Positions 19,990-62,552 of a stretch of 64,000 nt of DNA are shown piece after piece. The notes under the pieces were generated by a model that was not told the DNA's origin, made no database searches, and saw nothing but the letters and a program-made list of their open reading frames with translations. Where the stretch lies: contig CP120460.1 in assembly GCA_034226945.1 (NCBI GenBank), positions 930,001 through 994,000 on the forward strand, written 5' to 3'. This DNA is from Picochlorum sp. SENEW3 (taxonomy: Eukaryota). Each line of letters starts with the position of its first letter. The stretch's first letter is position 1. Both the position numbers and the translations under genes were made by a program.

Positions 19990-21465
19990 ATGAGCGTCGT
20001 TTGGTTGACATTGGCAAAAAGAATCAGATCCGCGGGAGGAGGTCCAGGGTTTCGGTTGTCTGGTGCCAAGTCCTTGTATCCCTCAAGGACGCTACGATCA
20101 GGGCCTGACGTGGCTGAATCTCGCATTGATCGTCATTATTATATCAATGATTGGGATATAAACGAAAAGTGGAGACTAAAGGCCGTGTGGAGAGCTTGGA
20201 TCGGGGGGCTTGTTGCTACCTGCTTGGCACTTGGTCAGGTCAGGACAGTGATCTCCTGCGATGAAGGGTCCAAGATTGGGGCAGATACCTTCTACATTCT
20301 ACCAACGAGAACAAGACAGAGGCAATTTTTCAAGTATGAACGCCGTTTACGCGAGAACAGTTCAGCAGAAAAGATATTCGAGTACTTTGCAAATACCAGA
20401 GGAGAGAAAGGCGAGCCTCTTATGAGTCAAGAGGACGTGATGCGAAGCTTTTGTCCGGTCTATCCTCCCTCTGGAAGCAAAATAATACGCTCAGGAAGTC
20501 TTCCAGGGGAGGGTATGGGCGGGATTAATGGCAATGGACATGTTTTTGATCCTGTGAAGAGGTCATCTTCTGCTCTAGGAGAAATGATGAAATTAGACGG
20601 ACAAGACGGAATCTCGCTACACGAATGGCTTCTGATCGATGCTCTTATATCTTTTCCTATCCATGACATTCACATTTTGTTTCGTTTGGTCGATACTGAC
20701 GGGAATGGAGTCATCGATGTTGAAGAATTACTCAAGTTATTTCTTGCAGTACTTAGGCGCTCATCGCTTGATAATACAGAGTTACAGGGTTCAAATCGAG
20801 GACTTCTGGAATCAGCACTCCGGAACAGTAGCCTGGTTAAGGGACTCATCAAAGATCATCATAAAAGTGACAAGATAAATACAAAGGGAATCACAATTGA
20901 AGCTTTGGAAGATTTCTGCCAGAGGCTCCGCAATGATCTTTTAAGTTTAGAATTCCATTATTATAGTCAAGGTGCAGAAAATATAAGTGGTGAAAATCTT
21001 GCAATAAGCTTAGTAAGCTGTGCAGATATCCAAGTAATAGACCAATATTTAGACAGAGTAGACGGCTTGCCAGAAAAACTGAAAAATGTTGCTTTTGACT
21101 TTGAAGACTACAAAACAGTCTCGAAAGTAATCTCCAATATTAAAGATCTGGCATCTGCAGCACTATTTTACGTCAAAATATTTGGGCCTATAGATAGAGG
21201 AGTGTTCGGAAAACTCGTGTGTCAAATAAAGAAGGATACAGGCCAAATCTCCCAAAGCTCACTGGACATTTTGTTTCATTTATTCAGTGACAGCAATGGT
21301 ACGTTCCACATTGATGACATGTATGGTGTCCTCAAATCTCACTTTCAAAATCGCACAGTTGGGGTGAGCAATACTGACATCCCTGCGCAAGAAAGCTTTT
21401 TAGCGTGCTGCTTGAACTGCTTGAGACACACCGCCCATGTCGGTCAACTATTCACACAGATTTAA
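19990..21465 (+). CDS. MICU: Mitochondrial calcium uptake protein (MICU-like, EF-hand)
   Basis: FFKYERRLRENSSAEKIFEYFA; EF-hand DTDGNGVIDVEE; LEFHYY. Confidence 0.85.
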   Translation: MSVVWLTLAKRIRSAGGGPGFRLSGAKSLYPSRTLRSGPDVAESRIDRHYYINDWDINEKWRLKAVWRAWIGGLVATCLALGQVRTVISCDEGSKIGADTFYILPTRTRQRQFFKYERRLRENSSAEKIFEYFANTRGEKGEPLMSQEDVMRSFCPVYPPSGSKIIRSGSLPGEGMGGINGNGHVFDPVKRSSSALGEMMKLDGQDGISLHEWLLIDALISFPIHDIHILFRLVDTDGNGVIDVEELLKLFLAVLRRSSLDNTELQGSNRGLLESALRNSSLVKGLIKDHHKSDKINTKGITIEALEDFCQRLRNDLLSLEFHYYSQGAENISGENLAISLVSCADIQVIDQYLDRVDGLPEKLKNVAFDFEDYKTVSKVISNIKDLASAALFYVKIFGPIDRGVFGKLVCQIKKDTGQISQSSLDILFHLFSDSNGTFHIDDMYGVLKSHFQNRTVGVSNTDIPAQESFLACCLNCLRHTAHVGQLFTQI

Positions 21466-22079
21466 CGCAACAACACATCTTGAGGTGAAGTAGATGTATT
21501 AAATAGGTGAAATGGTACACACATGTAACGTAAATCACGGGAACTGTAAAAAAACTTCCACATCATGATGTGGTGACCATGCATGCGTTCATGCAAAGTT
21601 GTCATCTGATGAGACAAACGTATAGAACACGTCGTTGTCGGTTTTAAAGCATTCTAAATTATATGAAATAATTTCATACACAATTTAAATATTATATATT
21701 GTGTTATTATAACAGGTTTATGTAGAATTAGACCAACTACGCGTGCACGTGAGGTTTGAACGTCCGTGAGGGAGTGAACTCGCCACAACTAAAAATACAC
21801 ACCGTACGTACCTGAAATAGTATTTATCATATATGGATATCACAAATATATCATTGGAAGCAATGGCAACGTCATCTGTCGTCACGTCAAAGACTCCCGT
21901 GTTGCTCCCGAGTTGCCCCGTGGTGGACACTGCCCACGGCATCTCATACTGTGATTCTGCCACGACAGTACACTAACTATGACATAAGTTTGAATTGTAG
22001 ATAGGGGCAGGCGGATGTGGCTGTAGACATGCAGCATGGTACACGTGGCTCTTATGCAAATTCAAGAGGTGTGTTCTGC

Positions 22080-23037
22080 TCAAAATATACGGTGAAACGA
22101 ACATCTCTCGACATCGACATGGCTGACTTTTTTCTTGAATGTTAGAGTTTCAATGGAGTTGACACGTATGTCGAATTTGTGTGCAGGATGTAGAATACTA
22201 GGAATACCATGTCGGAATCAAAGAAAAGGCAGAGAGCTGCTAAACCAACCACCAGTTCTGGGGAAGAAAACCTCCATGGGAACCACATTTGGAACACCCA
22301 GTCCATTAAATGTTCCTTTGACAGTTTTTGCAAGATATAAAGTATGTGGGATGCCCTTCCTGAGCAAAATCATTGGTTCAGCCAACTAGACATGCATGTT
22401 CACAATGAAACCAATTGTTTGCAAAGTCATTGGCATAGACATGGGTAAATCCAATGTATTGACAGCAGCATATCGCCATACATGTTCGCAAAGAGTTCAC
22501 ATGTCCAATGTGAAAACAAGCAAGGAGGATCGTTTCAAAACGCTCAGCAAGACTAATAAGGCATGGAGGCACTATAGTGGTCAGATGGCATACCCGTTTT
22601 TGATAAAGAAATGGATTAAAAAATTCGTACCAAATCTGGATAGCCGTCCAACCACAAAGACAACTAACACTGAAACTATAATGGAGTCTTATCGATTCAT
22701 GAACAATCAGTGGGAGAATGGCACAGATGCTGAATCAGGTGGAGGTTTGAAGGAAGCATTTTTTTCACCAATGCGTTGCTTGTGCTGCATGGAAGGGATG
22801 AAGGCGGGATGTGTTTTCAGATTGAAGTGTTGCAGAAACAACCCATGTGTTAGAACAAACTGGAACAGGGACACGAATGCTGCAATCAACATGTTCAATT
22901 TGCTACTCTGGAAAACACTGTATGAGGATCGTCCTAGAACATTCTCAAGAACTGAGAGGAAAAAAAGAAACAAATATGTCGTGCCATCACAGTACATTCG
23001 TGCACTGATTTGCCTTCAACGTAAGTTTTACTTGTAA
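22080..23037 (+). pseudogene. Degenerate Fanzor1/TnpB-like RNA-guided endonuclease (transposon relic)
   Basis: RuvC-I VIGIDMG (D at 22438-40); Zn-finger CLCC..CRNNPC; RuvC-III WNRDTNAAINM..RPRTFSR. In-frame TAG at 22387; RuvC-II segment missing. Confidence 0.85.
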
Positions 23038-23044
23038 CGGGTAA

Positions 23045-23323
23045 TCAACATTACACAGGATTCTTGACCAGCAAGAATGCTTCCAAACCACATGCCATCG
23101 AGAAAAGCCCATCAGAAAGCTCACACACAGAACGCGCACAGTGCTACGGGAACGAAACAAAGCACGGCTGGAGATGTACAGAAACCTCAACGAAGACACG
23201 ATGGCAACATATAAGGCATTATACCAGGAAGCGAGGCGATTGGTCAGGCATGACCAGACATACAGTTTTCACAAATTTGTGCACAGGGCAGCAGCATCAG
23301 GACCTTCCAGTCCCATCTTTTGA
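23045..23323 (+). mobile_element. Probable non-LTR retrotransposon (LINE) ORF2 fragment, EN-RT linker region
   Basis: KPIRKLTHRTRTVLRERNKARLEMY..YKALYQEARRLVRHDQ..FHKFV resembles the basic helical linker of LINE ORF2; no RT motifs present. Confidence 0.45.
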
Positions 23324-23370
23324 AAGGAACATGTGGACTGTGGTATCTAAGGAGTGAGTTATTGCCATAT

Positions 23371-24047
23371 TCATAAGAGGTAATCAACACGCCATATTCC
23401 TTTGCAATCTGTTGTAAAACTCCAACAGTTCTCCTCTATTCTCAGGACTGGCTGCATCTGGCTGACCCGTCCTCGGTTTATCGAACCTTTCATTCCAAGA
23501 GACACTCTAAGATCCATGTTATCATTGACTTTAAATGATGCATGTGACAATTCTGCAACTGCGTCCCCTGACCAGGAATCAGCCTGAAAATTGTAATCAT
23601 ACCTAGCTTTCAAACGAATATCGGTAGCACTGTCCAGAAAATCTTTGCCACGACTAACCCTCCTCTTCTCGGCGATTCTATATTGTTTTTTCGCCTTCAG
23701 AACGAGAGCAGTGTCTGCTGTCGAGGAAGCAAAGTCAACGCCAGCGGACAATCTCAGCCTGCTATCAAAGCCCTTTCGCACCGTGGAAATATCGCCAATA
23801 CCAATATGCTGCGAATGTAATCCAAATCGACTGAGTGGGCGAAACTAGATATACGCCTCACCAGTGAGGGTCAACAGGCTCTTCGCAAGCATACCTTGGA
23901 TAAAGACCCAAATACCTCAATATTGGCCGATTTTGTGTTGAGTATATGGTTTAATTTCAGCTCAATATTGCTCGAATGCAGAAAATGTGTCTTGCCCGAC
24001 AAAAGCAATGTTTTCTGTCTGCTGTCGAATGAGAGTTTTGTTTCCAT
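23371..24047 (-). CDS. OEP21: Chloroplast outer envelope pore protein 21
   Basis: METKLSFDS.. N-terminus and PVLRIEENCWSFTTDCKGIWRVDYLL C-terminus; one intron. Confidence 0.8.
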
Positions 24048-24158
24048 TTTCTGAGCGCCCAGGGAATAACATACATGTGTATATATATATCCCGTCAATG
24101 GATTAAAATTACGAAACGTTTACAAGGCAACGCAAAGTTACTGAACAGGACTGGTCCG

Positions 24159-27100
24159 TCAGAATGCTAAGAAAATTTCGTGCTGCAAAGAGCTTTTCTT
24201 CGGATCCCCGTCTGGCTCAGGTATTCGTATTGCAAGTTTGCCAAGGTCTTCTGACCAGTGCCATTCGGCCTCAATCCCATCAATGGTACACTTGACAGGT
24301 AAGGCATCACAATATACCAAAAAAACTCCACAGCCCCTAATATCAAGCCGAATCTCACATACCTCTTCCCAGTTAATGCTCTCCTGTGCTGAACCAGTAG
24401 TATTGATCCCAGTCTTGGGTGACATGAAATCAATCATGATCCATTCCTTATCGAAAATGTGCATCAGTAATGTTGACCCACCACCGTTAATCATGTCTTC
24501 CAGGCCAACTGGACAGAATTGAACTTTGAATTTATGAATTGGGACAATGGCTACTGCAGCAGCTTGTCCTGTTGTAAGGCTGATCTCAGTCGAATCTCCA
24601 GGTGACACTACATTCCACATACATCGATCGCTACTTGTGCAAGTGATCAGAAATTGCTGAGTGTCTCTCATGCTGTTAAACATGGGTATGTCAGATGGTC
24701 TGATCGAAGCTTGTACTTTGCAGGGGCCGCTAGCGTGTGTATGAAATTTTCTTTTGTCCCTATCCCATGAGGATCCCTGCAGATTAAAAACCCCTACGAG
24801 AGCCGATGAACAGTTCAAGCTCCATAATTTTAGAGCACTTCGCCCATCTGAGGTTACGTTATTGAACAAGCAGTCGACTGTCGGCCTACATGGCTGTTTT
24901 GTCCGCAAAACTGTCCCATTCACAAGCACCAGTCTCTTTAGCACTGAGAAGTCATGCTTGCCAGGTGCATCTGACACATACACTGGGCCACCACTCACTG
25001 CCCTTGCCACAGCATGAGCCTCACTCGCCTCGTGATTAGACTGAAACATATCAAAATCAGGTACGACAAGAGGGGACAGGAAAAGGCCATTATATGCACA
25101 GGCCACAATGTGGGCCAGGTGAGAGGCTTTGTCTGATGGGTAAAAATCATCTGATGCTCTCGCAACTGCAGTCTTTTTCCAATGATATATGTTTTCAATC
25201 GTATGGCACATGCAATTGATGACAAGATTTTCCTCAAAATGCTTTGAAGTACTTGCCTCAAGAGCATCGTGGTATCTCAGAGCAACTGATGCTCCCCCAC
25301 CTGCAACTGATCCTACCAGCCCAATGCCAGCTTGGCAATCGACCTTGACTCCAGAAACACCACATTTGCAGAGATACTTGTGCATGTCATTGAATAAATG
25401 GAATGGATCATAGAGTGCGCCCATACCCATCAAAACTGTTGGATTCCATTTCATGCTGGGCTCGACATCCAAAAGGCTGTTTTGGGGGTCAGGATGTACA
25501 TTGTGCGGAGCATATCGCATCATGTCAGCTGATTCAAGAGATATACCACTCCAATAAGCCGATATACCGTGCCAACAAATCACAAAGTCGACATGAAGGG
25601 CTGTTTTGAGATGCTGAATCACTGATTTCAGGTCAGGAGAATCTGAAAACTCCGATCCATGCGATAATTTGAATTTTGCGTTAGCTTGAATATTCGTGAG
25701 CCTCCTACTAAAATTTGTCTGATCAGCTATGAAGTCCAACAGTGGACCACGCAGAGGCCCATGGGCTAGTTTTGAAAATAATTGAAATGCCCTGCATGAC
25801 AAAGAAAAATTCATTTCACTTGATATGAGGTTCGCAGTTATTAGTGACCTTTAATACGTACCAACTCCCATTTGCAGCTGGATCAACAAAAATTTCGTAC
25901 AGCGACACGGATACAACCTGCAGAAGTCCCATCAAATATCCAGCAGCAGAATCCAAGACATTACTCAGTTTCCTATGCAGAAAAGCTATCCAAGTGCTTG
26001 GCACTTTCTCAAATGCAACCTTCTTCTTTTCATGCTCCAGAGCGAGGTTGTGGTACTGTAAGCCACCCTTCTGTCCAGTAGCCTCAATTAGCTCCTGAAG
26101 AGCAGCTCCAGATGAGCTACCCTCTGTGATATTTCTCATTGCAGGTCCAAGGGCTCTACTCTCCGCAGTAATGAATGCTTCATTGTGCCTGTGACGATTT
26201 GAAAAGTGTTGTATCTCACTGTTCAAGTCATCTCCCACAAATCCTGTGGGCACATCAGGATATGAGTCCAAATCTGTTTGCTGCCAACCATCGTCGATTA
26301 TGACAAATCTTGGTGGAGTGTGTCCTCGCTGCAAACTCTCAATACCCTGAAAAATATTTGGGGCAGATACTGAAGAGTAGAACGCATCCCAGCTGCACCA
26401 TCCAAAATAATCCAGAGATCTTGGTACAATCTTTTGAGAAAGACTCTTGCCACCTCCGCTGCGTTCTGCAGCAATCGCGACAGATTTTCTCACCAGATCA
26501 TACGGATCTGTGTCAACTGCAACCAATACGGCTTCAGGCCACGCATTCTCACTCAATGCCTTGTCTCCACTCTCGGTTTTGATCACTAGGCTATTCTTGC
26601 CCTTGTTCATCCTGCATCAATTCATAGGACTGTAATCAATATGATATGAACACGAACAAACTTTTCTTTCGAACTCGATTATAGAATCAGGTGGGATGAA
26701 TGAGGTGTCAAGACAAGGATATATGTTTCGGTCCCCTGGACCTCTCCAGGAGACCTATGTCCTCCATGTTGATTCTCTCCCTGAGGGGGCCAGGCCTGGA
26801 CAAATCTCGCAACTCTCTAAATGCCACCTCGTACGTATATGAAAGTAAAAACAGCCTATAAGGACCATTCTATATCTAAATTACTTATCATATACCCAGT
26901 AAACGCGTTCTTCTTGGAAAACTGCCTCGGCCTTTCGATTTTTTGCTTTTGAACTCCGAGGCCGGGTACATATCTTCTATATCTTGATCATTGCGATTCC
27001 GAAACTAGGATCATATTCTGATGGATCTTGTCCCCAAAACGCTAGAGGACGAATTCCAGATAGTCACTTCAGGCGACTGTCCGCAACAGGTGCGTCTTCA

Positions 27101-29656
27101 CTAGAGTATCCAAACTTTCTCAGCACGCTATCAGCTAAAGATATTCAACTCTTCAGATTTCTCGTGAACAATGGGAAGATAATCCCAAGAAGCGACGGCT
27201 GGGAAGCGCTTCTAAGCATTCAGAGAGAACAGAGATAGAAAGAGAACTGGAATCTTCAGAAAGTCCAGTTCCACTCGAGCATGGCTGGATTCAACCTCAG
27301 AGCACAGAAGACAGAGGCAAACGCGCAAAAAAGCCAGCATCATTTGAAAGTTTAAGCCGAGAAAATTCGAGACTTCGCTTCGAGGTCGATAATGCAAAGT
27401 CTTTGCAAAAGGTGCTTGAAAGCAACATACTCTCTCTGCAAGAACAGATTGTTGCACAGAAATCAACCTCGCCTGCCTCAACTATCTCTAGACAAGAGCT
27501 TAAATATAAAGCCACCAAGATACCCACAAAGCATCAGGCTCAGTATTCTGACGAAGTATCTCCAAGTTCCCTGAAAGCCCTCATTGCTGAAAAGCAGGAA
27601 GCAGCCCACACCCTTGAAGTATTTTACAAGGATCGGCTATCCAAGCTGAAATTGGATATCAATGTTATTCAGGACGAAAAGCATAGTTTGGTCACCGCAA
27701 ATGCAAATCTCTCAGCAGAGATTGAGAGATTGCAAAACATATTGGGGACTTTGCAGGCAGAGCGCAACTCCCTCAGAGAGCAAGTTGTTCAACTTGAAAG
27801 TGATGGCTTCAGGAGCAAAAATCCACAGGATGTCAGCAGAGATACACTCGAAGCTAATATTTTCACTGAAAGGCTACACAAAGCTGAATCTGAAGCCGCC
27901 CGAGTCCAGGAGCTTGAGGGAAAGCTCAAAGCATTTGAAATCGTATCCCAAAAACTGGAAGCAACAGAGTTGAGAGTCAGGTGCCTTGAAAAGATAGTAA
28001 AAGAGCAAGACGATTCACACACCTCTTTTCTCAATGTGAAAGACGAATTGATGAGGTGGAAAAACTTGTTCTCCCATGTTGCCAAAGACATAACACCACA
28101 AAAGCTTCTCTCCCACATGCAAAGCCTAGAAAATTCCCTTTGTGAATATCAGCAACAAGCCCAATGCTCTGAAATAAAAGTACGTCCTTTGCCTTCTTCT
28201 TCTAGATTGGATATCATTGTGTGAATAAATAGGTCGGTTTAAGGAGCAAGCCTTTCCGTGCAGGATGTTCAGAGTCTGGATGTAGGATCTAGATTAGATC
28301 TGCTGAACAAGAATGTCGCTGTCCTGGAAAAGGAAAACCTGAAATTACACAAGCACATCAAACAACTTGAATTAAGCAATGAAAGTCGATTCACCAGCCA
28401 AATACATTCTCTCAATCAGCAGGTCTTGACCCTGAAAGAGCAATTGGGCTCAGGATATTTCAATGATGAAACCACAAAGGTTTTGCATATGAAGAGGAAT
28501 CCTTACCACGACCAAAAAGTGGAGAGGTTTGAAGCCCAAATTACTCGTATCGAGGCAGAGAATGCTACCTTAAAAAGTAGACTGGAAAATTTGGGTGGCT
28601 CTCAAAGCGGCATACCTGCTCAGAGTGAGCTGAAACTTGCTCAAATGGATGGAGAGATTAACATGCTCAGGAAGAAACTCTCAGAAGTTCAGAAAGCTTC
28701 TGAGAGACTGAAACATGTTTTTATGCGCCAAATAACTTTACTTCGGGAGTCAGTTCCAAAGATATTCGGCTATCAATTAGAAATGGTATCAGATCCAGAT
28801 AAACGAGATTGCAAAGCTATTTTCACCCTTAGCCCCCACAGCACTGACTCTAAAATAGTCTTCAAACTTCTCAGAGACGGAGAAATGGAGCTGGTCGAAA
28901 ACGATTTTACGAAGAAATTTCCCAAGGAGATCGAGACATTCATTAAGAAATTCAACTCCATCCCAGGATTCATTGCAAATATGACCTTAGAAAACTTCCA
29001 GAGGCAATCTTGATCCAACATTGTGTGTAACGTGTAAAGAAATCCCACCATTCATCCCTCACTGCAGGCACTAGGAAAATACTATACTAATATTATAACA
29101 AGTAGACGCACCCGCTGTTTGCTCCCCCCCGCAATGTACATGTGAACAAATTGTCACAAATTAAAGGCAATATCATTCCATAGTATCCAGATTGCTCCAG
29201 TTCAAACAGAAGAAACTACAGATACCAACAAAAACCTCATCCAACGTTAGATGGAAAAAGGGATATATCCATTAGTAAATTCCATACCTGCGTTTCTATT
29301 GGAAGATACGAGATGTCGCTTCCCCAAGATGGAGTCATCCACCACAACTTGTTCTTTGCACTACAAACCCAACGTCGACTTGCGACTATTCCAAGATGAG
29401 CCATAAATATCGAATCCTCTTGCTCACTCCTAAGACCCAAAATTACGTGTTGATCTGACGTATCCGATACTGTGACTGTTGCGGTGTCGATATCTCGGAG
29501 AACTTCTATGGGTCCGTCTGTACAATTCCAAGAGCTGTCGTGAAACACTAGAGTTCCTGAGCCCAAATGCGGACCCGCCTGATTCAATTTCATTTCCATG
29601 ATTCTTTTATGTCCTGTATATAATATGTATTCGAGGGGCGACTCCATGGCATCCAA
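24159..29656 (-). CDS. Raffinose synthase/seed imbibition protein Sip1 (GH36); start uncertain; 2.5-kb intron 26612-29111
   Basis: KLWWMTP..LPIETQ|FLLFEL..TLRGGANSG|MNKGKNSLVIKTESGD; FGWCSWDAFY; FVIIDDGWQ; GVKVDCQ; RASDDFYP; PDFDMFQS. Confidence 0.92.
27021..29013 (+). CDS. MAD1: Spindle assembly checkpoint protein MAD1 (nested in the Sip1 intron)
   Basis: Long coiled coil; TKVLHMKRNP (MAD2-binding motif), RLKHVF (RLK motif), IFGYQL and SIPGFIANMTLENF; two TGTAA signals after the stop. Confidence 0.9.
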
Positions 29657-29816
29657 GACATCCTACGCAAAACAAACTTATAGAGGTCGATCTCCCATTG
29701 GGTACTCCGATCAATCGGATCCCATCGCGATAGGGCACGTTTCCGGTAATTATTATTATTTCCGCTAGCAAGGCTTCTAGAGCACTGCATCGCCCATTAT
29801 ATAATAATTGCGCGAA

Positions 29817-49074: not shown

Positions 49075-51085
49075 TTAACCTATGTGGTGATTCTTTCTTT
49101 TCAATTTGAATTTCAACAACATCGACTGAACATTCTTGTTCTTGTTTATGATTTTACTTCCACTGTATACCATTCCTCCTAAGATGAGGACCATGAGCAG
49201 AGTACGTCCACTTGGAAGGAATGCATTTGATTCTCTGGTTCCAAGATTGAAATAATTACTGCCCGATGACGACGAGAAAAAGTCATCATCATCGTCAATA
49301 TCAAATATCTGTGGATCATATTCAATACCATCCTCTGCAAACGAAATACATCTTTCCACCTGAGATGAAGTCCATGACGGAAACTTCTTGCAACGTGCTT
49401 TTAACTCTGGAATTATTTTGGTCTCCAGCAACATTTGCATATTATTCGTGGAAGAAGATGCATCCTTCTCAGCATCTTGTGCCTCGCCATCTTGCTGCTG
49501 CTGCTGCTGCACTTGTTGCTGCTGCTCTTGTTGTTGCTGCACTTGTTGCTGCTGCACTTGTTGCTGCTGCTCTTGCTCATGCAGTTCATTTGAATCAAAG
49601 GCATCGAGTATCGGTTTTATTTTGATAGCATGCCTCTTAGGTGTGTGTGTGAAGGTTTGATCGCTTTCTTCAACAGCTCTGTCCTGTTCATTCAATTCAA
49701 AGGCTCTTATGACTGAACTATCCTGCGATTCAAGGCCAGACCTTCTTGTGACACAGAGCTTGCAAGACTTCCTGCAATTTTTGAACATATATGCTGAATT
49801 ATTGTCGCACTCTCCTTGTTCGGCCCATTGCTGACATTTCGTATGTGAGTCGGTGCAAGAATCTGGCAAAACGTCCAGCACTTCTGACAACATTGATTCC
49901 AATTCTTCTTCATATTCGTCTACTTTGGAGCATTCCTTCTCCAACTGAGGGGTTCGCATGCAACGCGACCTATGTCGCTCGCAGAGTGCTGCATTTAGCG
50001 TGATAGGCACTTCAACAGACAAGAGGTCGCTAAGCAGTGCAGCTCCTTTGGTTTGAAAGCTAGATGGTCTGGGAGGATGAGGGAAAATTCCGCCCTTTGG
50101 CTTTTCTTCCTCAAGATTCCAAGGAGGACACATAAATGGGTCAAATCCAAAGTGCCAATGCTTATCAAATGAATATTCCTTCTCTGGGCTATGAACTTGC
50201 CACAACAAACCATAGTGGAGCACATGTGGGGGCTCAGAAGTGGCATATCCAGGATATAACATTAGAGACTGGGGTGTCTTGTGCCAAACATTGGCTTTCG
50301 CACACGCAAAACTGTATCCGTACATCTCACTTATCCACGGCTTATCGCCGGGCTTCTTACTGTATGCATCTCCTGTTAAGTGCCATGCTTCAGGGTCTGC
50401 CCTAACATCTTCTGTGAATTTCAACCACATTGGCACCACACGCCTCAAGTCTTGCGTACTCATCAACGTAAATCCCCCTGCATCGTCACTCTTCCGCCCA
50501 ATGGGTCCTGCAAGAGAGTCTTCCCTAGGATGAACCTCTGGAATATGTGTATCAGCAAGTTCATTCGCAACCCCCTTCATATACCCGAAATGAGCAGAGA
50601 TGGCCCAACCTTTCGATGCCCCCAGCTCCTCGGGTACAAATGGACGCCTTATTATCATGTCTGCATCGATGATCAGAACATAGTCCTCCTTCACGTCTGT
50701 CCGTGCGAGGAAATCAATCACAGCAACCGGCTTGTTGTACGCGGGATATACATCGCCAGTCCTGGGATGATGCGTGTACGATGGAGCCACGTGTGAATTC
50801 ACCAAACTCTTAGCTTCCTCTGGCATCTGATCCCATTGCTCCTCCGTGCAACTCACGATCCGAGTCAATGGGCCAGGTTGCCCGGCCTTCCTGTGGCTGT
50901 AGACCATGCCTGCACGTGTGGCAACTTATCATCTAAAGAATAGTCCTTCATCTCTTTCAGTGCGGACTCGACGTACCTAAACTTTGCCACACGAAATACT
51001 GACCACATTCCGCAGGAAAAGCCGTATGCACACTTGCACCGAACACGCGGTCGGCCAAGAATACTACAAACAGAAGCAATCTCAT
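49075..51085 (-). CDS. Peptidyl-serine alpha-galactosyltransferase-like (SERGT1/HPAT family) with ShK domain, poly-Q and C-terminal TM
   Basis: VHTAFPAECGQYFVWQSLG|MVYSHRKAGQPGPLTRI, YPAYNKP, IDADM and WISEMYGY; ShK-type CTDSHTKC..CRKSCKLC. Confidence 0.88.
49490..49582 (-). repeat. Coding CAG/CAA poly-glutamine repeat
   Basis: QEQQQQVQQQQVQQQQEQQQQVQQQQQQ. Confidence 0.9.
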
Positions 51086-61595: not shown

Positions 61596-62552
61596 ATGTC
61601 AAGCAGAATGGAGGAAAAGAAGGATCAGGAAGAGGCAGTTAGGGAGGTACCGTTGGTTGAAAGCAGCAGCTCTGCTTTTGAAGCGCTCGATCCCTCGACC
61701 AAGAAGAAAAATAAGAAGAACAAGAACAAGAAGAAGAAAATTGCCGCGTCTCAGGGCGACGCCGGGCGAGTGGATGAGACTGACAGGAAAGGAGAAGAGG
61801 AAGGGGAGCAAGAAGAAGTGCAAGCCGTGGAGCAGCCTCCTGAGCAGGACGTGGAAGTGGCAAACGAGGTGACTGATGCGTGTGAGCAGGAAATGCAGTT
61901 GACATCAGACCCTGACAGGAAAGGAGAAGAGGAAGGGGAGCAGGAAGAAGTGCAGGACGTGGAAGTGGCAAACGAGGTGACTGATGCGTGTGAGCAGGAA
62001 ATGCAGTTGACATCAGACCCTGACAGGGAAGGAGAAGAGGAAGGGGAGCAGGAAGAAGTGCAAGCCGTGGAGCAGCCTCCTGAGCAGGACGTGGAAGTGG
62101 CAAACGAGGTGACTGATGCGTGTGAGCAGGAATTACAGTTGACATCAGACCCTGACAGGAAAGGAGAAGAGGAAGGGGAGCAGGAAGAAGTGCAGGACGT
62201 GGAAGTGGCAAACGAGGTGACTGATGCGTGTGAGCAGGAAAAGCCCCTGCAAGACAAGGGGGGTATCAAAATCAGGGAGGTGCCCTCGTCGTATCTGTCT
62301 GATGCTGCCAAGGCATGGGGTGGAATCCCTGTCTCTTTGACTGAGGATGAAACTTTTAAAACTGTTGAAACATTTATACCCTACAATAAATTGAAAGATA
62401 TGCGCGCAGAGGATGGACTGGATATGACCAAAAAGGAGTATTATCTTGCGCCCGAAGAGTTCTCGAAAGTTTTTGGTTTGGATATGCAAGCATATCTGAG
62501 ACTTCCTCTCTGGAGGAGACAAATGCTTAAAAAGAAAGTTGGGTTATTTTAA
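61596..62552 (+). CDS. Acidic repeat protein with C-terminal villin headpiece domain
   Basis: KEYYLAPEEFSKVFGL..LPLWRRQMLKKKVGLF. Confidence 0.85.
   Translation: MSSRMEEKKDQEEAVREVPLVESSSSAFEALDPSTKKKNKKNKNKKKKIAASQGDAGRVDETDRKGEEEGEQEEVQAVEQPPEQDVEVANEVTDACEQEMQLTSDPDRKGEEEGEQEEVQDVEVANEVTDACEQEMQLTSDPDREGEEEGEQEEVQAVEQPPEQDVEVANEVTDACEQELQLTSDPDRKGEEEGEQEEVQDVEVANEVTDACEQEKPLQDKGGIKIREVPSSYLSDAAKAWGGIPVSLTEDETFKTVETFIPYNKLKDMRAEDGLDMTKKEYYLAPEEFSKVFGLDMQAYLRLPLWRRQMLKKKVGLF
61780..62240 (+). repeat. Coding tandem repeat of alternating 132-nt and 108-nt units (ABAB)
   Basis: DRKGEEEGEQEEVQ(AVEQPPEQ)DVEVANEVTDACEQEMQLTSDP x4, near-identical at the DNA level. Confidence 0.95.

Follow-up and report, generated by a model that had tools for sequence, protein, structure and literature searches.

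Coding remnants in an intergenic gap

The window analyzed here is a 64-kb stretch (64,000 nucleotides) of the Picochlorum sp. SENEW3 genome (contig CP120460.1, positions 930,001 to 994,000), and its feature of interest is a set of plus-strand coding remnants that derive from a gene for Fanzor1, a eukaryotic relative of the TnpB nucleases. The longest uninterrupted stretch is a stop-to-stop frame at 22390-23037, whose translation gives 215 amino acids (aa) and which a first-pass annotation had read as a Fanzor1 relic on the basis of several quoted motifs. All of these strings are where they were reported to be: VIGIDMGKSNVLTA, whose Asp codon is 22438-22440; AWRHYSG..KKW..RPTTKT; four Cys residues (codons 22777-22779, 22786-22788, 22831-22833, and 22846-22848); and WNRDTNAAINMFNLL..RPRTFSR, whose Asp codon is 22870-22872. 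A frame-1 open reading frame (ORF) at 22096-22389 stops at a TAG directly before the 215-codon frame. The first-pass annotation linked the two as pieces of one gene; the TAG is as described, but the homologous upstream piece lies in frame 3 (22209-22406), not in the frame-1 ORF, which has no family in Pfam or NCBIfam.

The relic occupies a 1.9-kb intergenic gap between a gene for an EF-hand protein (plus strand, ending at 21465) and a small minus-strand gene (ORF 23371-23844), after which comes a raffinose-synthase gene. Our Pfam scan of the window covered 36 of the 59 ORFs of ≥130 aa, with shadow ORFs and previously scanned ORFs excluded: 28 of the 36 match families of ordinary nuclear genes, and none matches a transposase or reverse transcriptase. 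The window is compact eukaryotic (green-algal) nuclear DNA, and Pfam scans found no viral gene in it. None of 13 small ORFs on both strands of 21462-23268 reached the Pfam cutoff, two rows (E = 0.14 and 0.19) being at chance level. A repeat search found no second copy of the relic within the window, and Rfam and tRNA scans of the window gave no match.

Family assignment and active-site residues

An exhaustive phmmer search of 1.84 billion representative sequences yielded 35 relatives of the 215-aa ORF, 13 of them at E ≤ 1e-10 and 5 at E ≤ 1e-30; they include full-length proteins of 591 to 985 aa, and the best E value quoted (8e-47) is to a 985-aa protein. PF07282, the zinc-ribbon domain of TnpB and Fanzor proteins (Cas12f1-like TNB), scored above the gathering cutoff in 11 of 14 relatives and below it in 2, with no score in the other. 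We built a profile, A1, from 12 full-length relatives of the ORF and compared it with proteins of solved structure. Its best match was Guillardia theta Fanzor1 (GtFz1, PDB 9cer; E = 4.2e-21), followed by the Fanzor1 proteins of Spizellomyces punctatus (SpuFz1, 8gkh; E = 4.2e-16) and Parasitella parasitica (PpFz1, 9cf0; E = 2.3e-13), nucleases treated in sections of Saito et al. 2023 (PMC10432273). Each structure was matched in two or three stretches (N-terminal, middle, and RuvC/zinc finger), so that the N-terminal part is included. Fanzor1 thus accounts for the top 3 of 11 PDB matches, the rest having E ≥ 0.014; the Fanzor2 content of this PDB set was not checked.

When the window ORF itself was aligned to A1 with hhalign, the match had a probability of 99.9% (E = 1.3e-33), and the alignment gap fell exactly over a block that the relic has lost (see below). 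The RuvC/TnpB profile match on which the first-pass annotation had staked its reading was absent from curated libraries but present with this custom profile. Taken together, these comparisons make descent from a Fanzor1 gene secure, though established via intermediates, and they agree with the family originally proposed.

The residues that define the nuclease core can be followed through the same alignment. The RuvC-I Asp in GIDMGKS (codon 22438-22440) aligns with the invariant D717 of A1, and the RD of the RuvC-III motif WNRDTNA (Asp codon 22870-22872) aligns with the invariant R948 and D949. The four zinc-finger Cys residues align with the invariant C918, C921, C936, and C941; by alignment the relic thus keeps the C4 zinc finger of PF07282, a domain that Pfam itself does not call there. 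The spacing is altered: the Bao-Jurka pattern for the family is D-X(125,275)-[TS][TS]-X-X-Cys, whereas the relic has only ∼108 residues from the Asp to S-P-M-R-C, with Pro at the second position. In P0061, the intact relative described below, the distance from D753 to S947-S948 is 193.

Deletions, other copies, and the Picochlorum clade

A word search with the 985-aa relative led to a tighter clade of 913- to 1,014-aa proteins, in which the closest intact relative of the relic is P0061 (1,012 aa). Three collinear pieces of the window match P0061 by tblastn, at identities of 77 to 85%. The first, at 22209-22406 (plus strand, frame 3), is a remnant of codons 1 to 67, including the basic N terminus MSESKKRQR...; it is 85% identical to P0061 aa 1-67 (E = 6e-30), and an in-frame TAA (22338-22340) interrupts it. 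At the junction of deletion 1 (22407-22419), ∼676 aa (P0061 aa 68-743, ∼2.0 kb) are gone; this is the whole N-terminal body that holds guide RNA and target, and it has no counterpart in the window. Three codons at the junction (ETN, 22407-22415) correspond to P0061 aa 744-746, and four extra bases (22416-22419) then move the frame from 3 to 1. The second piece (22420-22767, plus strand, frame 1) holds the RuvC-I block and the conserved stretch after it, and is 83% identical to P0061 aa 747-862 (E = 4e-49).

Deletion 2 (plus strand) has its junction at 22765-22768 and has removed ∼85 aa (∼255 nt): the WY/FRK..KM helix, the IIVAYGD strand, and the VLVDE(H/F) motif with the catalytic Glu. That the RuvC-II Glu had been deleted was claimed at the outset, and the comparison bears this out, since the missing block contains VLVDE(H/F), whose Glu is invariant in all 12 members of A1. 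The first-pass annotation was also right to place a deletion where FFSPMR joins CLCC, but it set the site at 22776; the junction actually falls between FF and SPMRC, the latter aligning with SSMNC of the intact protein. It listed this deletion and overlooked the larger one that runs from codon 67 to RuvC-I. An offset of 394 in the 8gkh chain puts SpuFz1 D606 on the Asp of the RD motif and E541 on the lost Glu (DE[YFH]xxS, just before the zinc finger), which is absent here as part of the deleted 85 aa; section 10 of PMC10432273 names D606 and E541 as metal ligands.

The third piece (22768-22962, plus strand, frame 1) is the counterpart of P0061 aa 948-1012 and carries the C4 zinc finger and RuvC-III (WNRD); the tblastn match, at 22765-22962, is 77% identical to P0061 aa 947-1012 (E = 7e-28). 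P0061 ends at a point equivalent to 22962, but the relic frame reads on for 25 codons to a TAA at 23035-23037. The 215-codon frame (22390-23037) is therefore a fusion of two C-terminal remnants followed by 25 read-through codons. Overall the relic lacks ∼760 of ∼1,012 residues; both Asp residues and all four Cys residues survive, and the catalytic triad is incomplete.

We compared contigs from four runs (X3, X10, X12, and X17) with window positions 21400-24200. One X3 contig (record 27) covers 22144-22713 without mismatch and one X10 contig (record 3) covers 22444-22850 without mismatch; since they cross junctions 1 and 2, respectively, these junctions are not assembly errors, with the proviso that X3 shares a sample with the best-matching run and may not be independent of it. 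Undeleted forms are also visible in these runs. In X12, one contig (record 12) is 259 letters longer precisely at junction 2, where a loose end in X17 reads intact ..ATCVLVDEH.., and loose ends before 22421 in X10, X12, and X17 continue as intact ..EKVQIYETN.. into junction 1. X17 is an oligo-dT RNA library, whose contigs cannot prove transcription. A diverged X3 contig (word depth 161.6) joins 21698 to 22620 via 31 other letters, and an X12 contig has a similar joint from 21663 to the 22620 region; these joined contigs (window 21619-21698 to 22620 onward) probably represent another, differently deleted copy or allele. We also considered a spliced or retrocopied origin for the deletions and rejected it, partly by inference, because there is no poly(A) at the end and junction 1, in the sequence available, cannot be read as GT..AG.

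Two close relatives speak against constraint on the ORF. P0001, 99% identical to the relic, carries a 1-nucleotide frameshift inside the 215-codon frame; because it continues into the relic's own flank, it is the same locus in another data set. P0003, from Picochlorum sp. BPE23 (68 to 77% identical), has the same deletion 2 and a frameshift but keeps ∼87 more residues upstream of RuvC-I, from which it follows that deletion 2 is older than deletion 1. Gene models at BPE23 and SENEW3 are short fragments.

Close fragments are named Picochlorum by their sources (BPE23, SENEW3, and P. renovo), and intact relatives of 1,012 to 1,014 aa, 74 to 85% identical, exist as well: one of 1,014 aa is a Picochlorum oklahomense transcript from MMETSP that is marked complete, and two proteins that cluster with P0061 come from contigs 969 and 983 kb long. 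The expectation that intact copies occur elsewhere thus holds for the genus, but is not shown for the source genome. Full-length relatives often lie on contigs of 3.2 to 3.8 kb, lengths that would fit an element of ∼3.3 kb or slightly longer.

In a quick tree of 29 rows, in which the relic pieces were joined with X and fill 31% of the columns, the relic falls inside a fully supported clade of 985- to 1,014-aa proteins, which a branch of length 0.95 separates from proteins in viral contexts. Members of this clade are longer than the nearest sequence relatives found (590 to 850 aa), keep all catalytic residues, and are called only "hypothetical" by their sources; we found no description of the clade in the literature searched, and the word Picochlorum is absent from nine supplements of PMC10432273.

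Element ends and interpretation

Downstream of the coding remnants, the 3′ tail (22963-23036, plus strand) runs to a right end that reads ..TTTTACTTG followed by TA. Other copies, on two X3 contigs and one X10 contig, diverge from the window behind 23036. The terminus resembles the right end of two distant metagenomic relatives, L009 and L010 (..TTTTTACTG followed by TA), and also those of L006, L008, L012, and L013; ending in ..ACTTG and then TA, it fits a mariner-type end. The right-end regions of six elements have only terminal bases in common and are too diverged for a shared guide (omega) RNA structure to be read from them; Rfam gave no match.

These relatives came from a metagenome scan that returned distant sequences only (best-segment identity, 19 to 47%; full-length ones, 25 to 35%), close copies having been missed because the search patterns lay partly in the block lost from the relic. 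Of the 10 loci examined, 5 (L006, L009, L010, L012, and L013) have TAC-N-GTA termini on either side of the Fanzor ORF; L008 and L014 have one on a single side, and none was found in L001, L002, or L004; the two 21-base ends of L013 differ at one position. The relatives' elements are 2.4 to 2.9 kb long and consist of a Fanzor gene alone between ∼20-bp inverted repeats beginning TA-CAGTA. No DDE transposase was found in the window or inside the relatives' elements, where the Fanzor ORF is the only one; because none is encoded within, these elements, if mobile, need a transposase in trans.

L009 and L010 share 2,453 nt at 99% identity between unlike flanks: a near-identical 2.45-kb element at two sites (L009:3687-6126 and L010:2600-5052), the first of which adjoins a giant-virus capsid gene. 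This suggests recent mobility of Fanzor1 elements in giant-virus genomes of estuarine or marine metagenomes. Among 17 neighboring ORFs scanned at the distant loci, several are giant-virus genes, encoding a major capsid protein (L009), a D5-like primase and DUF5764 (L006), and YqaJ (L008); 5 of the 17 have no family.

In our reading, which we hold at roughly 90% probability, the locus is a pseudogene: an internally deleted, nonautonomous copy of an element of at least ∼3.3 kb whose sole gene encoded a Fanzor1 protein of ∼1,000 aa. The first-pass annotation had already called the copy inactive and nonautonomous, and the 676-aa deletion, the stop codon, and the frameshift strengthen that judgment; as judged from sequence, the relic would make no active nuclease. 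The parent element would have been a lone Fanzor1 gene between ∼20-bp inverted repeats beginning TA-CAGTA, the Tc1/mariner signature, and would have been moved by a transposase supplied in trans. In an intact copy, the sequence for the guide RNA would span the end of the gene and extend as far as the right end, here at 23036. The deletions probably arose by faulty repair, as is usual for derivatives of DNA transposons, and a 2- to 3-nt overlap is suggested at junction 1. Transposon decay is known to leave dead Fanzor1 copies with internal deletions, and in this respect the relic is an ordinary phenomenon.

Comparison with known systems fits this picture. Like SpuFz1, GtFz1, and PpFz1, the relic has a C4 finger and the Asp residues of RuvC-I and RuvC-III, and its right end comes directly after the gene, as in elements whose guide RNA is described in parts of PMC10432273 as overlapping the 3′ end of the gene; it differs from those proteins in lacking ∼760 residues, the E541 equivalent among them, and in being broken by a stop codon and a frameshift. 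PUl-4 and PGv-1 (the latter from Phaeocystis globosa virus), as presented in sections of PMC3627910, resemble our distant relatives in carrying Fanzor1 only, between Tc1/mariner-like ends. The window's right end shares the terminal motif of those relatives, but it is the only recognizable end, with neither a left repeat nor a transposase found. The alga Cyanidioschyzon merolae, whose genome is compact too, likewise has a Fanzor1 element with one ORF, CMe-1A (∼3 kb). According to passages of PMC3627910 and PMC10432273, CMe-1A and the Spu-1 elements of Spizellomyces have internally deleted or ORF-less ("ghost") derivatives, a decay by internal deletion that spares the ends; the window copy differs in coming from a green alga and another protein clade, and in retaining coding ends that are still legible. 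Table 1 of PMC3627910 places Fanzor1 in the green algae Chlamydomonas, Volvox, and Chlorella, and parts of PMC12633428 add Auxenochlorella and Chloropicon. Bacterial TnpB (IS200/IS605 and IS607) has the same RuvC-zinc finger-RuvC core (D...[TS][TS]xx-C4...RD, as given in a section of PMC3627910), and A1 matches TnpB-like solved proteins weakly (LaTranC, E = 0.014); in contrast, the host here is eukaryotic, the protein is much larger, and the ends are apparently mariner-like rather than IS200/IS605-like.

Several points weigh against our reading. The 215-aa ORF alone has no match in Pfam, NCBIfam, PDB sequences, or the phage collection, and because curated libraries miss it, the family assignment rests on a chain from the ORF to full-length relatives to solved Fanzor1 proteins. 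The mariner-type carrier is inferred from distant relatives of 25 to 35% identity and one terminal motif, because no left partner repeat was found: within 21440-22230 the best inverted match to the right end scored 9, against a shuffle mean of 9.8. The fold of 22840-23060 is no better than shuffled sequence (z = +0.81), so the 3′ region shows no excess of RNA structure. Finally, the 215-codon frame is still open, and the remnants are only mildly decayed: of the 83 positions at which six intact relatives do not vary, the relic deviates at 7 (0 to 6 in leave-one-out controls); sequence decay alone is hence no proof of lost constraint.

The alternative that survives best, although we think it unlikely, is that the deletion-2 form is a propagating nonautonomous subfamily that keeps the guide-encoding right end and is moved or served in trans by intact elements. 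Deletion 2 is indeed common to the window, the P0001 contig, and BPE23 P0003, which is 68 to 77% identical and has more upstream sequence, but it may have been inherited at one orthologous locus, and P0001 is the window locus rather than a second copy. Further diverged 3′ copies, ∼88 to 89% alike, end at 23036 in X3 (records 29 and 30); their abundance cannot be read from the contigs, whose depth sums are not copy numbers. The "ghost" derivatives without an ORF that parts of PMC10432273 describe for Spizellomyces Fanzor1 offer a precedent, whereas neither a left end nor a structured RNA was found here.

Viruses enter as a second alternative: the relic might belong to an endogenized giant-virus insert and have arrived directly by virus rather than as a copy of a cellular transposon. 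Virus-mediated spread of Fanzor was proposed by Bao and Jurka (in a portion of PMC3627910), distant full-length relatives adjoin giant-virus genes (L009, L006, and L008), and one relative, L072, lies in a giant-virus bin of IMG/VR. However, no viral gene was found in the window, and the relic sits within the supported 985- to 1,014-aa clade, which includes the Picochlorum transcript and proteins on ∼1-Mb contigs and lies across the 0.95 branch from virus-context proteins. A search of IMG/VR with P0061 gave 34 pattern matches, none of them a relative. As for the suggestion that intact elements might be found in viruses of this alga, only distant relatives (25 to 35% identity) adjoin giant-virus genes, and no close relative was found in IMG/VR. 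We regard a direct viral origin as very unlikely.

Even less probable is that the 215-codon frame encodes a working, domesticated miniprotein with RuvC-I, zinc finger, and RuvC-III but no Glu. Its 215 codons are open, both Asp residues and the four Cys residues are kept, and decay at invariant sites is mild; yet the frame lacks the catalytic Glu as well as the core strands that lie between RuvC-I and the zinc finger in intact proteins, and its last 25 codons read through what used to be the 3′ tail. In P0001 this locus carries a frameshift, and the genes modeled in BPE23 and SENEW3 are short fragments. A chance match, or an unrelated zinc-finger protein, would explain why the ORF alone finds nothing in the libraries named above, but is refuted by E values of 1e-28 to 1e-49 over three collinear pieces and by the hhalign probability of 99.9%, and we consider it hardly credible.

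Our preferred reading, a dead copy of a single-gene Fanzor1 element, makes the relic useful chiefly as a pointer to an unannotated and apparently intact Fanzor1 clade in Picochlorum, a use of modest value. It is conceivable, if doubtful, that Picochlorum harbors an undescribed and perhaps active lineage of ∼1,000-aa Fanzor1 proteins, transcribed in P. oklahomense, with the deletion-2 form as a propagating guide-end parasite that keeps the right end and depends in trans on the intact protein and on a mariner-type transposase. Because Picochlorum grows fast and has uses in biotechnology, a native RNA-guided nuclease in it could merit testing.

Flanking and neighboring features

Upstream of the remnants, a noncoding stretch (21475-22208, plus strand) is a possible 5′ region of the element, and diverged forms of it occur in other runs: contigs from X17, X10, and X12, 87 to 93% alike, tile 21523-22407, with loose ends at 21479 and 21495. 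None of its 10 small ORFs reaches the Pfam cutoff, and local alignment of 21466-22226 with 22227-23060 scored 23, within the range of shuffled sequence (mean, 21.7; maximum, 29). At 21984-21999 (plus strand) lies another motif like the terminus, oriented the same way and matching it at 13 of 16 bases; nothing else near the locus matches in this way, and 0.43 matches of this kind would be expected per window. A further short match, D6, is collinear with it, and an X3 joint runs from 21803 to 22001. The motif could be what is left of an older copy's tail, or could mark a boundary at 22000.

Abutting the Fanzor right end is a retroelement fragment: as judged by alignment, the 92-codon segment at 23045-23326 (plus strand) matches residues 24-114 of a 490-aa protein from Picochlorum renovo at 90% identity, and that protein has a reverse-transcriptase domain further on. 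In other runs the fragment stands in other contexts and is bounded near 23048 and near 23326. Two 16-base stretches that agree at 14 positions, 23035-23050 and 23374-23389, flank 23051-23373 and could be the target duplication of this fragment; we estimate that ∼0.5 such matches would be expected by chance in 2 kb.

For the small minus-strand gene beyond it (23371-23844), the nearest look-alike clusters in the Atlas (scores of 0.91 to 0.92) are unnamed proteins, and the recognition score is below the tool's threshold; the commonest taxon is Chlorophyta in the top two clusters and Streptophyta in the third. Clusters resembling outer-envelope pores or porins are a weak lead only. An X3 contig skips 23809-23894, whose ends read GT..AG on the minus strand, which identifies an intron. 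Because the last codons of this gene overlap the possible target duplication, its C terminus has perhaps been reshaped by transposon insertions.

Homology to raffinose synthase is spread over three minus-strand ORFs at 24159-26616 and 29240-29662, which cover 260-749, 136-249, and 7-100 of the profile; the piece with the N terminus is 2.6 kb away, beyond a plus-strand MAD1-like ORF. The split could mean that one intron is very long, that a second gene fragment is present, or that the region has been rearranged. Two internal repeats lie farther off. One, at 61780-62244, consists of a 225-nt unit (108/24/108-nt spacing) within an ORF that ends in a villin headpiece domain; the other, at 49484-49597, is a CTG/TTG-rich array with a 15-nt period inside an ORF resembling hydroxyproline arabinosyltransferase.

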